Shown here: positions 2,020 through 9,051 of the stretch, one piece after another
Numbering within the stretch: the stretch's first letter is position 1
Layout: every line of letters begins with the position of its first letter
Source of the DNA: Pseudomonadota bacterium
Lineage (GTDB): Bacteria > Bdellovibrionota > FAC87 > UBA2466
NCBI GenBank assembly: GCA_043718025.1
Contig: JAYSWN010000114.1
Coordinates: 1 to 10,555, forward strand
Direction of reading: 5' to 3'
Length of the DNA: 10,555 nt
Notes under the pieces: generated by a model
What the model saw: the letters and a program-made list of their open reading frames with translations, nothing else
Databases searched by the model: none
What the model was told of the DNA's origin: nothing
Program-made: the position numbers and the translations under genes

Positions 2020-4278
2020 TCATTGCGTAATCGTCATCAGCGCCCGCGGGGCCCCACCGGAGCCGCCGCCAGAAAGTTTTGCCGCAACCACATCGCCAAC
2101 ACTCTCACTCGCCGGAGCGCGAAAAGCTTGGCCCACGGAAGCGGTGCGTTTTACTGACGCTGCGTCACATAGAGTCACGGTAACCATTTTGGTTTCGCCG
2201 CAGAAGCCTGCAAAGTTGCCGACATTAGCCATGATGCCCAGGCCACGTAAACGCGTGCCCTTGTTCTCTTTAATCTCTGCCGAAGCTAATCCCATAAATT
2301 TACCGTTCATGATGGGAGGCCCCTTGGGACCAATCATGGGGTCGGTGTTGTCGGCCGCGGGTCCGGCGCCTGCGCCGCCTTCGCCATTGCCAGCGCTCCC
2401 GTACTCGGTGTTGCGCACAAAATTATTGGTACTGCCGCGATCGCCAGCGCCCTCTTCTTGGCCAACGTTAGGCATGGCGCCCAATCCTCCACCGTCACCG
2501 CCCGCGCCTTTTCCTACGGCAGGAACTCCGCCGCCGGCTCCAGAGCCAGGAGGTTCGCTAGGAGACGGATTGCCGCCACCACCGATTAAACTGCCGGCAC
2601 TACCGCCTTTTGGTTGGGCATCGTCGCCATTCGAACGGCGAGAACCTAAGCCCAACGGTTTAGTTCGGCTGCTGCCCGACACGGGTTGATTGCCCGCAAA
2701 ATTGATATTGGGAACGTTGTACTTAAACGGCGCTAAGGCACCGCGATCCGAACTGCGACCCGGATTAGGCCCGGTGCCGCCGATGGGGTTAGCGCCCTCG
2801 CCAACCGGAGCCGCTTTAAATTCACTGAATTTCACCGGGTCACCAAACTTAACCGGTTCGACACCTTTACCACCACCCGCACCACCGCCGGCGCTGCTGC
2901 CACCACCACCGCTCGGGCTGCCACCACCGCCGCCACCGGACTCTGGGTTGGCCGCAATAGGCGCTTCGGGAAATTTGGGATCGGGTTTATTTAATTCGTC
3001 GCGTATCGCCTGACGTTCACGTTGTAGAGTATCTAGCTTCTGCGCGAGCGCCGTTTCCGCGTTACTTAATTTGTCCCAAGCTGCCACCCCGCTACGAGTG
3101 ATTGCTTGGCTTTTTGGAGCAAGTTCATCCACTACAATAGAAGCCGCCTGGCGGTAATAACTCGTGCCTTTATCCGACGCAGTAATTCCTAAATCTAGAT
3201 TCACCTCAGAGAGGTGCCCTTCATTTTGTGTTCTAAATCGGTCGAAGGACCGCCGCAAGCCTTCGGCATTAATACCTTCGGCATTGTCCGCCGTGGCTAA
3301 GGCTCCGGCGATTTCAAATCCGAATCCACGTACCCGGCGGGTAAAGGCAATTGAGATATCATTAGTCGCGGCTGCGATAGCGTCGGCGATCGAGAACAAA
3401 ATTGAGGGAAAAAAATGGGGGATGATTCGCATTGAAGCGCTTTTTTTAACTGCCGTCCCTGCCTTTGATGGTTCAGGAGCAGCATCACTCTTGAATCCCG
3501 CTCCGGCTTGATTTCCCAGTGAAGTCCAAAATTTATCGAAGCATTTTGGGGCGTCGAAACTTTCACCGCAAATTTCTTGCGCGTCCTTCAATTTATCTTT
3601 TTCGGTCAAAGAAGCAAAAGCTCCCACGTCAGAGGGCCGTTTCACCAAATTGGACGCGCGGTCCAGGTTCCGAATCCATTTATCCATTACTTTTTTGGTG
3701 CTGGGATCAATTCGCCCGCCATCGGTATCGAGCGCGATTTCAGATTCTGGCTCTTTCTCCGAAACCGGCATGTCGGCCATTGCTTTAACGGCGTTTGCTT
3801 TCACAACCGCCAGAGAGTCGATTGAAAATTCCTTCGGTTTAACTTTTTCAGTAGTTGACGAAGTTGTAGTCGCCCCTTGCAGAACTAACTTACCTGAATC
3901 TTTAACATCAACCTTAACTGACTTTGATCCTTCGATGATGACGGTGCGGTAGAAACTAGGAAATCCAGAAATCTTTGTGAGAACATCTACGTAGCTGCGG
4001 GCCGCCCTTGCTTCTTGCTCCGCTTTTTCGGCATCTTTTTGCTCAAGGATTTGTCGATTCTGTGCATTTGCTTGGTTAAATTCGGCTCTGCGGCCATCTT
4101 GTTGGTGCTGCAAACGATCCAGCCCGGATTGGGCCTCGCGGCGGCTCTGGTCGCTTATGCCGGCTTTCGCTCCACCGGTAGCGCCGCTCAAACCAGGCGC
4201 AAGCTGTGTGTTTGCCACCGCATTAACCGCGATAGCCGTAGCAAAAAATGTGGTGACGATGAAGTAAAGTGCTCTCAC
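2020..4278 (-). CDS. Secreted hypothetical protein, 752 aa, with helical/coiled-coil segments and a long Gly/Pro/Ser-rich low-complexity C-terminal half
   Basis: Long ORF with GTG start, AAGGGGGG RBS and Sec-type signal peptide (MRALYFIVTTFFATAIAVNAVA); two local Cys pairs; no family recognised. Confidence 0.8.
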   Translation of the reverse strand: MRALYFIVTTFFATAIAVNAVANTQLAPGLSGATGGAKAGISDQSRREAQSGLDRLQHQQDGRRAEFNQANAQNRQILEQKDAEKAEQEARAARSYVDVLTKISGFPSFYRTVIIEGSKSVKVDVKDSGKLVLQGATTTSSTTEKVKPKEFSIDSLAVVKANAVKAMADMPVSEKEPESEIALDTDGGRIDPSTKKVMDKWIRNLDRASNLVKRPSDVGAFASLTEKDKLKDAQEICGESFDAPKCFDKFWTSLGNQAGAGFKSDAAPEPSKAGTAVKKSASMRIIPHFFPSILFSIADAIAAATNDISIAFTRRVRGFGFEIAGALATADNAEGINAEGLRRSFDRFRTQNEGHLSEVNLDLGITASDKGTSYYRQAASIVVDELAPKSQAITRSGVAAWDKLSNAETALAQKLDTLQRERQAIRDELNKPDPKFPEAPIAANPESGGGGGGSPSGGGGSSAGGGAGGGKGVEPVKFGDPVKFSEFKAAPVGEGANPIGGTGPNPGRSSDRGALAPFKYNVPNINFAGNQPVSGSSRTKPLGLGSRRSNGDDAQPKGGSAGSLIGGGGNPSPSEPPGSGAGGGVPAVGKGAGGDGGGLGAMPNVGQEEGAGDRGSTNNFVRNTEYGSAGNGEGGAGAGPAADNTDPMIGPKGPPIMNGKFMGLASAEIKENKGTRLRGLGIMANVGNFAGFCGETKMVTVTLCDAASVKRTASVGQAFRAPASESVGDVVAAKLSGGGSGGAPRALMTITQ

Positions 4279-6390: not shown

Positions 6391-6456
6391 GAGACACTAG
6401 TTTAGTAAACGATATAATTGCCCTTAAGAACCCAACTCTTTCTAGCCCCGAGGAGG
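6391..6456 (+). promoter_or_regulatory. Candidate sigma-70 promoter and RBS of the thioredoxin/beta-barrel operon
   Basis: Perfect TATAAT at 6413-6418, weak -35 GAGACA at 6391-6396 (16-bp spacer), GAGGAGG at 6450-6456 before ATG 6461. Confidence 0.5.
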
Positions 6457-6460
6457 CGCG

Positions 6461-6988
6461 ATGACCCCAAGGTTATGGCTGCTGACTTTGTCTAGCATTG
6501 CACTCGTAAGTTGCGGCAGGTACTACGCCGGTGGACAGCCCGCGCGGCCGCCCGCAAATCCGCCGCCCACGGTGATGGTCGAGGGTAAGCGCACCACCCT
6601 TACGGTTTTCGGCGCCGGCTTCTGCACCAAATGCAAAGCGCAATTTCCAGAAATAAACCAATTGCTCTCACAGCTTTCCGCTAAAGAACGCGCCTTGCTC
6701 GACATCAAACTATTTTATGTGGCCGGAGAGCCAAGCAACGTTCGCCCTACGCAAGAGCTGGCTGAGAGTTACCGCGACAACTACTTTCCGCTGGCTCAAC
6801 CCGAACCCGATCTACCTTGGCGCTGGGCAAACTTTAAGCTGATGTTGCCCGGAGTAAAACTTGATGTGCCGGCGGCGGTGGTGAGCGACGAGAACGGGCA
6901 AATTTTAAAGCGCTTTCCGGCCGGAGACACCACTTTTGTTTCTGCAGAAATTTCGTCGTTCGTTGAAGCTCGTCTCAAGGCCCAATAA
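6461..6988 (+). CDS. Thioredoxin-fold lipoprotein (CTKC)
   Basis: Lipobox LVS-C18, Pro-rich tether (PARPPANPPP), beta-strand followed by GAGFCTKC, and a cis-Pro-like DVPAAVVSDENG segment; strong RBS. Confidence 0.85.
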   Translation: MTPRLWLLTLSSIALVSCGRYYAGGQPARPPANPPPTVMVEGKRTTLTVFGAGFCTKCKAQFPEINQLLSQLSAKERALLDIKLFYVAGEPSNVRPTQELAESYRDNYFPLAQPEPDLPWRWANFKLMLPGVKLDVPAAVVSDENGQILKRFPAGDTTFVSAEISSFVEARLKAQ

Positions 6989-7025
6989 AAAACCTGTTCG
7001 CCTTATTTCTAACTGGAGTCACGCC

Positions 7026-7508
7026 ATGCCAAAGTTTCTGACGCTTCTCGCCTTACTGGGAAATGCCGTTGTTTTTTCGGCAACCGTGCCGACGTTTCAG
7101 GCCGAAACGACCGAAGGAAAGTCTTTCTCCCTGAAAGATAAACTCAAAGAAGGCCGGCCGGTACTGATCTCTTTTTGGGCAACCTGGTGTCAGCCTTGTG
7201 TTGATGAACTCAATCATTTAAAAACGCGGCTAAAAAAAGAGACGGCCGGGGTCGACGTGGTGGCCATTAACGTAGACACCTCCGAAACCTCTTCTGATGT
7301 GCGCCCCACGATGCGCCTACATAAGATTGAGTTTCCGGTGATTTTAGACCCCACCCATCAGATATTTTCGAAGTTTAACTCCACTAAGGCCGTGCCTTTT
7401 TCAGTTCTGGTCAGCCCGCAAGGTGAGATTTTACAAACTTATTCAGGCTATAGCGACGAGATGATGAAAAAGCTCGAGTCGTATAACCAGAAAGCAAAGG
7501 GCGGATGA
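7026..7508 (+). CDS. TlpA/ResA-family thiol-disulfide reductase, exported (160 aa)
   Basis: PVLISFWATWCQPC, VVAINVD, FPVILDP and AVPFSVLVSPQG motifs. Start reassigned from 6936 to ATG 7026 because of a GGAG RBS at 7015-7018 and a signal peptide (MPKFLTLLALL). Confidence 0.93.
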   Translation: MPKFLTLLALLGNAVVFSATVPTFQAETTEGKSFSLKDKLKEGRPVLISFWATWCQPCVDELNHLKTRLKKETAGVDVVAINVDTSETSSDVRPTMRLHKIEFPVILDPTHQIFSKFNSTKAVPFSVLVSPQGEILQTYSGYSDEMMKKLESYNQKAKGG

Positions 7509-8980
7509 GGGTTCTCTTAAGTTTGGCGTTAACGGCAAGTTTTGCTCAAGCCGCCGGCGAAATAAAGAGTGATGTTGAGGCGAGCCCCTTTCGGATCTCA
7601 ACTCAGGGACACGGCATGTTCTTGAATTCGACCGACAACGAAGATTCTTTGGCCCGCGCTGCTTATAATCTGCTGCACGAGAATAAGGTTTCTGCGGAGT
7701 TCAAAGACGTGCAAGCCGATCTCACCTTCACCAACCGATGGAATCCCAACGGAAACAAAGAGAACAATTCTTTCTTCACGGTAGAAAAGAAAACCCTGAG
7801 TCACGCTTGGTCCGACGGTAAAGTAGAAGCCGGAGACAGCCATCAGGAGCTGGGGCGGGGTATCGCGCTTTCGCTCTATCGCGATAGCGCTTTTGGCGTC
7901 GACAATACCCTCGAAGGAGTCGCGCTTAAACAGAGCCTTGGGCAGGTGAAGGTGAGCGCATTGGCCGGACGAATCAACAGCCTAAACAATCCGGTAGCGT
8001 TGAATCCCATCACCAATCCCCTTTTAAATCGTAACGTCTGGTTAGCCGGTGCGCAAAGCACCGTAAAAGCGACCAAGGACGTAGAGATCGGTGGGCACTA
8101 CTTATTTTCTGCAAACAAGCCGAACGACGCTTCCGATATCGATAAAAAGTGGCACACCGCCGGCATCGTGTTGGCTTGCAATGGCTTGGCTAATGCGATC
8201 GATCTTTACGGCGAAACCAACGTACTGCTCACTGAAGGCGCCGGCGCCAATCAAGTGAGCTACCCCACGGGCAATGGAAGCTACTTATCTGCCGCTTGGT
8301 CCGAAGAGAGCTGGCGGGTTAAGGCCGAGGTAAAAGATTACCGAAAGTTTTACTACGACTTTCGTCGCCCGCCGACGTTAGAAGACGACGTCGTAGTAAC
8401 GCTAAACACTCAAGACGTCACTGCCGCACGTTTTGCCGTAGAGCGCGGCTTGGGATTAAAGACTAATGTGTACGCCTCGTTCTTAGCCGGGCACGATCGA
8501 ATCGAAGAGGGCGACCTGCGCCACGGCATCATCGGTGGAAAATGGTTGGGCCCTTTGCGATCGGCTTTTGAAGCCAAGCTTGGATACCGATGGGTGGTTG
8601 GCCATAGCAACCTCACCCACGGCGGTTTGAAACTTAAAGTTCCCACCTTTAAGGGCCAGTCGGCCGAATTTGAATACCGCAAGCAAATTGGAAACAAAGA
8701 TTTGAATCGCTACCGCATCATCGAAGATCGCAATCAAACCACGGTTGGCTACAACTTTAACGAACAATGGAACGCCGGCGTAGGCTACGAATTTCTTCCC
8801 ACCGCCCCGCCCGAGGCGCAGGCCCACTTCTTTAATGTTAACGGCACTTACAAAACGGGCGCCTTTATTACTAAGGCATTTGTCGGGCAGACGAGCGGCG
8901 GCACTTTGTGCTCGGCCGGAGTTTGCCGCCAAGTTCCACCCTTTTCTGGAGCTTACCTCGAAGGCACTTATCAGTTCTGA
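7505..8980 (+). CDS. DUF6029-like outer-membrane beta-barrel protein with a C-terminal Cx4C motif
   Basis: Signal peptide (AFAQA-type end: SFAQA), amphipathic beta-strands and terminal YQF barrel signature. GDSHQELGRGIALSLY...GVDNTLEG, PPTL and GGTLCSAGVCRQVPPFSG match motifs I recall for DUF6029. ATGA overlap with the upstream gene. Confidence 0.8.
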   Translation: MRVLLSLALTASFAQAAGEIKSDVEASPFRISTQGHGMFLNSTDNEDSLARAAYNLLHENKVSAEFKDVQADLTFTNRWNPNGNKENNSFFTVEKKTLSHAWSDGKVEAGDSHQELGRGIALSLYRDSAFGVDNTLEGVALKQSLGQVKVSALAGRINSLNNPVALNPITNPLLNRNVWLAGAQSTVKATKDVEIGGHYLFSANKPNDASDIDKKWHTAGIVLACNGLANAIDLYGETNVLLTEGAGANQVSYPTGNGSYLSAAWSEESWRVKAEVKDYRKFYYDFRRPPTLEDDVVVTLNTQDVTAARFAVERGLGLKTNVYASFLAGHDRIEEGDLRHGIIGGKWLGPLRSAFEAKLGYRWVVGHSNLTHGGLKLKVPTFKGQSAEFEYRKQIGNKDLNRYRIIEDRNQTTVGYNFNEQWNAGVGYEFLPTAPPEAQAHFFNVNGTYKTGAFITKAFVGQTSGGTLCSAGVCRQVPPFSGAYLEGTYQF

Positions 8981-9014: not shown

Positions 9015-9051
9015 AAATAGAAACGGCGTAGCGGAAGCTCCGCCACGCCGT
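9015..9051 (-). terminator. Probable intrinsic terminator for korAB between convergent genes
   Basis: Minus strand ACGGCGTGGCGGA-GCT-TCCGCTACGCCGT (13-bp stem including one G-U pair that forms only on this strand) followed by TTCTATTT. Confidence 0.6.

Follow-up and report, generated by a model that had tools for sequence, protein, structure and literature searches.

Three co-oriented genes on the + strand of a 10,555-nucleotide stretch of DNA from a Pseudomonadota bacterium (GTDB lineage Bacteria; Bdellovibrionota; FAC87; UBA2466) encode a thioredoxin-fold lipoprotein, a TlpA-type thioredoxin and a predicted DUF6029 outer-membrane beta-barrel. The stretch, hereafter the window, covers positions 1 to 10,555 of contig JAYSWN010000114.1 in assembly GCA_043718025.1. 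Here, we show using profile searches, structure prediction and surveys of gene neighbourhoods that these genes belong to a module that is real, conserved and widespread, and that is undescribed in the literature we searched. Its architecture is well supported by prediction: TlpA and the barrel likely form one unit, as judged from sequence and models. On whether this unit serves a thiol relay, running from DsbD to the TlpA plug, on to a cysteine hairpin of the barrel and finally to an outer acceptor, our confidence is evenly balanced.

The lipoprotein gene (6461-6988, 175 residues) ends 37 bases before the gene for TlpA (7026-7508, 160 residues, with a signal-peptide-like N-terminus), which overlaps the barrel gene (7505-8980, 491 residues, C-terminal YQF) by ATGA at 7505-7508. 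We start TlpA at the ATG at 7026, behind a GGAG site; the list of open reading frames has an upstream TTG at 6936. A preliminary description of this DNA had reported three tightly linked exported-type genes, each with a Cys pair, and all three reading frames are indeed present on the + strand, with the CTKC active-site motif of the lipoprotein at 6623-6634, the CSAGVC of the barrel at 8909-8926 and the ATGA overlap where it had put them. The WCQPC motif that it assigned to TlpA is there as well but was misplaced, as the range it gave, 7188-7199, holds CQPC and the W begins at 7185, so that the full motif spans 7185-7199.

The third gene had also been named correctly as a DUF6029 barrel. It scores 58.6 bits against a Pfam cut-off of 27 for DUF6029 (PF19494), all 88 of its homologues carry a precomputed DUF6029 domain, and the top clusters in the Atlas are DUF6029 at 0.97. 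The family is large, with 1,524 representatives at E values up to 0.001; a homologue with 40% identity bears the label Bdellovibrionaceae, and other homologues are given as Proteobacteria or Deltaproteobacteria. An AlphaFold2 model made with 86 homologues (predicted local distance difference test, pLDDT, 93.3; predicted template modelling score, pTM, 0.86) has 24 strands across residues 29-490, and it is all beta with no plug or extra domain within the 491 residues. Cys469 and Cys474 lie on a short beta-hairpin (strands 466-470 and 473-477) in the loop between membrane strands 23 and 24 (residues 464-479, 8894-8941 on the + strand). Short turns follow the even strands and long loops the odd ones, and by this strand parity the last of the outer loops is the one that holds the hairpin.

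The loop that holds this hairpin is the most conserved segment of the barrel, with a mean of 0.75 over 144 sequences, above all other loops and strands including loops 3 and 7. Conservation of the Cys pair had been set beforehand as a check, and the pair is conserved wherever it can be read: in 86/86 close homologues (89 matches minus 3 fragments), in 105/105 complete Myxococcota barrels and in 20/20 weak-to-middling Bacteroidota matches, the latter two sets having been picked by whole-profile score. Both cysteines are also invariant in a 116-row alignment of distant relatives at about 20% identity. Among 131 further representatives, 121 have Cx4C and 1 has Cx3C within the last 45 residues; in eight of the nine lacking the pair the profile match stops short of the hairpin, and the ninth continues into an unrelated tail. 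When metagenomes were scanned with one motif variant that has selenocysteine in place of the first hairpin cysteine, 21 matches came up, and no barrel frame was among them.

Sequence searches for a solved homologue of the barrel gave 0 matches. By fold, the barrel comes closest to the ushers FimD and PapC (Z 20.3 and 20.0, root-mean-square deviation 4.7-5.1, 9-10% identity), in agreement with Foldseek, and the list also holds AlgE (Z 16.5), the MtrAB structure 6r2q (Z 15.9) and Wzi (Z 13.8). A possible likeness of the hairpin to that of the DsbD N-domain found no support in the solved-structure search. The presence of Wzi and AlgE bears on the role proposed in the only open paper on DUF6029 that we found, PMC9603273, passages of which suggest a polysaccharide function on the basis of the HHpred similarity of 28 Wzi-like barrels near OPX genes. 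We regard a polysaccharide export porin as very improbable here, since such fold matches, at about 10% identity, are generic to any large barrel, since the conserved neighbours are thioredoxins, and since none of the eight window proteins scanned is a polysaccharide gene product.

TlpA, the second gene, exceeds the thresholds for AhpC-TSA (73.9 bits) and Redoxin, and combines this fold with a WCxxC motif and the conserved cis-Pro position; C55, C58, E61, D84 and P124 are invariant in 81 aligned sequences. The barrel-linked TlpAs form a subfamily of their own, whose profile finds the uncharacterised protein of PDB 2m72 as its best solved match (196 bits versus 109 for the next). TlpA/ResA proteins are periplasmic reductases usually recharged by DsbD/CcdA, and this one is likely periplasmic too.

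How constant is the link between TlpA and the barrel? In the source phylum the barrel occurs in 33/301 genomes, namely the source, 28/28 others of its family, 2/2 of the sister family and two with weak C-terminal matches. The order lipoprotein-TlpA-barrel is kept at 28 of the 30 loci read, the source included; in the remaining two the contig breaks off. The barrel further occurs in 110/251 genomes of Myxococcota (the phylum of a Polyangiales record), in 68/251 genomes from the phylum to which a Flavobacterium record belongs, and in 0/14 controls. In the Myxococcota, 106 loci were read; they come from 105 genomes, as the centre genome and four fragmentary ones of the 110 were set aside. A TlpA of at least 75 bits is adjacent or fused in 95/104 loci with enough upstream DNA. 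Across GTDB about 9,500 stretches match one variant of the hairpin motif; of 120 of these, 80 came with flanks, and 70/80 are true barrels, mostly from Bacteroidota. As this set was selected on the cysteines, it says nothing about their conservation. TlpA lies within two genes of the barrel at 55/65 of these motif-scan loci with upstream DNA and beside it at 20/20 of the weak-to-middling Bacteroidota loci. Barrel homologues are thus nearly always found beside a TlpA (28/28, 55/65, 20/20 and 95/104), and the co-occurrence that had been named as a check holds. No RNA holder is listed, and the viral contigs searched contained no relative.

In some lineages the two proteins are one chain. N-terminal TlpA-barrel fusions make up 10 of 13 representatives over 600 residues, one of them with two TlpA domains, and four more proteins carry both the TlpA and the DUF6029 Pfam domains, two of these labelled Myxococcota, which brings the natural fusions to 14; an in-frame fusion is also seen at 5/104 Myxococcota genome loci. 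Such single-chain proteins would be handy objects for structure and trapping work. We modelled one of them, P0173, with 102 sequences including 13 fusions (pLDDT 92.7, pTM 0.89, against 0.86 for the barrel alone). TlpA accounts for roughly one fifth of this chain, and we infer that with a freely floating TlpA the pTM would not exceed that of the barrel alone. When the model is compared with solved structures, 12/13 alignments to TonB-dependent transporters begin in TlpA (model residues 36-102) and in the N-terminal plug of the transporter. For the barrel-alone model, the 11 chains common to both lists begin at the barrel, not the plug; the starts for fusion versus barrel alone are 7 versus 135 in BtuB, 1 versus 133 in ShuA and 30 versus 162 in Cir. 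The fusion adds 14 to 42 aligned residues for transporters, as opposed to 8 to 12 for usher barrels. TlpA thus superposes on the transporter plugs and likely sits plug-like in the barrel lumen, a placement modelled on this fused relative rather than on the source pair. Covariation across 189 TlpA/barrel pairs gave no signal between the two proteins (highest z 7.6, whereas shuffled pairs reached 6.7 and 8.1); many of the top pairs within the barrel agree with neighbouring strands.

A plug in a wide barrel also suits a different function, that of a redox-gated or redox-assisted importer. TlpA would then be a removable plug and the hairpin a gate or a thiol/metal site, with disulfide or metal cargo being reduced on entry and the second thioredoxin an optional helper. 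Such an importer would account for the plug position of TlpA and for a barrel as wide as usher pores, as well as for a TlpA-barrel pair that is constant while the third gene varies or is absent. Nonetheless, the genes that recur around the barrel encode thioredoxins, not recognisable cargo-binding or catabolic proteins, and the partner, where its location can be read, is outside and has a CxxC. We therefore find an importer unlikely, albeit deserving of serious attention; on this reading, too, an outer-membrane barrel that is plugged by a thioredoxin would be architecturally new.

The third partner, encoded by the first gene of the trio, differs between lineages. In the source it has its lipid cysteine at Cys18 (6512-6514), followed by a Pro-rich linker and a CxxC 37 residues past the lipid cysteine; F50, C55, C58 and P137 are invariant, and both CxxC cysteines are present in 36/36 aligned sequences. 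The domain scan gives a weak thioredoxin-fold match (AhpC-TSA, E 0.003), and the best solved match of its profile is StoA (3erw, E 1.7e-7). The preliminary description had named Omp28-type lipoproteins as neighbours of such barrels in Bacteroidota, but here Omp28 (PF11551) gave no match at E values up to 0.1, with the same domain library that did find Omp28 in 57 of the Bacteroidota neighbours. By profile comparison, the third partner in the source lineage is a ResA/StoA-like lipoprotein, not Omp28. The lipoprotein is itself TlpA-like, with a profile score of 109 against the TlpA alignment, higher than its 79 against the WCTAC lipoproteins of Myxococcota, and orthology with the latter is unsupported. 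In one genus (L014, L022, L026, L027) the thioredoxin domain of the lipoprotein is duplicated in tandem and CxxC is gone from the first copy, and the lipoproteins at L004, L005, L006 and L024 have an additional Cys pair directly before the conserved Pro. The source genome holds a paralogue of the thioredoxin domain (L036:1453-2367, 29% identity, WCGDC, no lipobox, an extra C-terminal domain), which adjoins an OsmC-like gene.

In Bacteroidota, Omp28 is near 57/70 of the mostly Bacteroidota motif-scan barrels (75 hand-picked neighbours, one of them below cut-off), in line with the statement of the preliminary description that DUF6029 often sits beside TlpA and Omp28 in this phylum. The partner there is Omp28 or a redoxin, and in 17/20 loci one bears a type IX secretion system (T9SS) sorting domain, a mark of export to the surface. 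Among the Bacteroidota Omp28 lipoproteins, 38/53 have at least 2 acidic residues and a net negative charge after the lipid cysteine, a rule looser than the consensus for the acidic export signal given in PMC5080379. Small T9SS cargo proteins with the motif W-x-S-S-L-C-F-x(1-3)-C-F-x-P lie beside TlpA at three loci (L203:2180-2926, L054:3280-4029, L202:5535-6242); they show no thioredoxin fold and no solved match, and possibly are further acceptors. Among the 30 best Myxococcota loci, 21 show another CxxC thioredoxin gene upstream, arranged as in the source; most of these encode WCTAC lipoproteins. A second thioredoxin thus recurs, from different subfamilies, in three phyla. Because the third partner varies or is absent, we take TlpA plus barrel as the constant core and the acceptor as exchangeable or unlinked.

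Two further readings turn on this partner. The barrel may be specialised for export, flipping the lipoprotein or other cargo onto the cell surface while TlpA keeps the cargo reduced on the way, in line with an usher-sized pore, with a lipoprotein as the commonest neighbour and with a source family in which no T9SS cargo signature points to another means of export. We judge this decidedly improbable, as the partner has its own T9SS export domain in 17/20 Bacteroidota loci, the barrel persists without a neighbouring thioredoxin lipoprotein, and TlpA is predicted to fill the lumen. Alternatively, the chemistry may be confined to the periplasm, with a structural or regulatory hairpin disulfide that TlpA and the lipoprotein form, proof-read or repair from that side. 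Cross-strand hairpin disulfides are often structural, and the local lipoprotein is TlpA-like (score 109) and has no export signal; DsbC acting on LptD, a case listed among the references of PMC5403849, offers a comparison. Nonetheless, a folding helper is not expected to be fused to its client across many lineages or to sit stably in the lumen, and T9SS-tagged partners act outside, which makes such periplasmic chemistry rather improbable.

Returning to the thiol relay, how might the electrons travel? DsbD/CcdA would recharge TlpA, following the ResA/TlpA paradigm, and TlpA is predicted to enter the lumen from the periplasm, where its active site would face and reduce the hairpin. The hairpin could then pass the electrons outward by reducing an outer thioredoxin, a step that is best supported in Bacteroidota and least in the source lineage. 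The acceptor in the source would most likely be the co-encoded thioredoxin lipoprotein, for which we infer a surface position, and the system may serve to maintain thiols at the surface in reduced form or to break disulfides of outside substrates. The source genome encodes a full DsbD (N-domain, membrane domain and thioredoxin) and a shorter membrane-plus-thioredoxin form, and a DsbD-family gene is found in 26/28 genomes of its family. The full DsbD (L034:619-3281) is directly followed by an exported redoxin, likely a separate periplasmic reducing pathway. Of the relay set out in the preliminary description, the link between TlpA and barrel is strengthened by fusions, lumen model and gene linkage, and the outward step is suggested by analogy with Bacteroidota. 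Taken more broadly, DUF6029 barrels may be the outer-membrane counterpart of DsbD, having a thioredoxin plug, a cysteine hairpin and surface thioredoxins recruited independently in each phylum, a generalisation that we offer tentatively, with confidence a little short of even.

Several observations weigh against such a relay. DsbD-family genes are also present in 10/14 control genomes, and as the family is common anyway their presence shows availability only. TlpA is absent within two genes of the barrel in 10/65 motif-scan and 9/104 Myxococcota loci. Since the two models are of different proteins and only alignment end points were compared, they show where TlpA is placed and not the direction of its active site. 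A 24-strand pore is far larger than a relay requires and fits a transporter. The default location of a lipoprotein is the periplasmic face, and nothing places the lipoprotein of the source's family outside, because the acidic signal (1/30 lipoproteins) and T9SS sorting domains (1/28 genomes) are nearly absent from it. A second thioredoxin accompanies only about 29/72 Myxococcota loci that have 2 kb of upstream DNA, and in one Myxococcota subclade TlpA and barrel stand with no second thioredoxin within about 4 kb in 20/20 loci. In five genomes of this subclade the best candidate partner elsewhere scores 55-102 bits, no more than common TlpA paralogues do. Downstream of the barrel, this subclade (L308-L326) often has a gene for a secreted glycan-binding protein of the double F5/8-type C kind, with two conserved cysteines.

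The module shares features with several known systems. Similar to DsbD, CcdA and ScsB, it has a membrane protein with one conserved Cys pair among thioredoxin-fold partners, and the thioredoxin domains can be fused to it. Those proteins, however, are alpha-helical inner-membrane members of PF02683, a family to which the barrel, modelled as all beta, has no match; here the membrane protein is predicted to be a beta-barrel of the outer membrane whose lumen would house the donor, and the relay is our own proposal. MtrAB(C) consists of a large plugless barrel that houses a soluble redox protein, plus an outer partner, and the module as predicted would resemble it in each of these respects (6r2q, Z 15.9). 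In contrast to the multiheme cytochromes of Mtr, the carriers here would be CxxC thioredoxins and a barrel with a Cys pair of its own; a CxxCH motif is absent from lipoprotein and TlpA, whose motifs read CTKCK and CQPCV. TonB-dependent transporters have 22 strands and an integral N-terminal plug. The N-terminally fused TlpA superposes on these plugs, whereas the barrel here has 24 predicted strands from residue 29 and its predicted plug is a thioredoxin, usually a separate protein. The ushers FimD and PapC share the 24 strands and are the best fold matches, but at 9-10% identity and a deviation of about 5, and the barrel lacks the usher plug and the N- and C-terminal periplasmic domains; no usher family match was found in the barrel and no pilin or chaperone genes in the window.

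A close relative is the TlpA-DUF6029-Omp28 trio of Bacteroidota, which has the same TlpA subfamily (best match PDB 2m72) and barrel family but differs in its third gene, as here a 175-residue ResA-like lipoprotein lies upstream instead of Omp28 downstream, and there is no T9SS cargo. In Porphyromonas gingivalis, passages of PMC13744359 describe PG2175 as a thioredoxin-domain protein, PG2174 as an uncharacterised 65 kDa outer-membrane protein in vesicles, PG2173 as Omp28 and PG2172 as PorA. PG2175-PG2174-PG2173, beside PG2172, probably is the Bacteroidota trio, the assignment of PG2174 to DUF6029 being one that does not come from sequence comparison. In the open text of PubMed Central and bioRxiv (subscription papers and bioRxiv supplements lay outside the search) no paper describes the module, and in the open literature we found no paper on the function of this P. 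gingivalis trio and none that joins PorA, Omp28 and operon; passages of PMC7712824 contain no occurrence of disulfide, omp28 or operon. Nor did we find in the open literature an account of what recharges thiol enzymes that lie beyond the outer membrane, though Bacteroidota have surface-exported thioredoxins. The module gives a concrete and testable answer to this question, with named cysteines. If the relay is true, it would be an undescribed route of reducing power across the outer membrane, and thousands of species of Bacteroidota, Myxococcota and related groups would have a thiol wire from the cytoplasm to the cell surface.

Finally, the trio is flanked by a divergent aldehyde dehydrogenase gene and a convergent 2-oxoacid:ferredoxin oxidoreductase gene, which recur only inside the source's family and are for this reason treated as inherited synteny. 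A weak sigma70-like promoter candidate, GAGACA-16-TATAAT, lies at 6391-6418 on the + strand, 42 bases before the first ATG with 10/12 matches; it was rejected as not above chance, since shuffled sequence would yield 1.4 such sites where 1 is seen. A strong 13-pair hairpin (9023-9051), which separates the barrel gene from the oxidoreductase gene that runs towards it, scored as a terminator on the - strand. Elsewhere in the window, a gene on the - strand (2020-4278) encodes a 752-residue protein that begins like a signal peptide, includes a stretch resembling a coiled coil and ends in a long low-complexity tail rich in Gly and Pro, for which no Pfam or NCBIfam match was found. Another (151-1815, - strand) encodes a secreted protein in which a trypsin-like protease precedes two repeats bounded by Cys (PKCxLxANP) and a C-terminal domain of no assigned family, and in which the catalytic-Ser motif of the protease reads GDTGG, not GDSGG.

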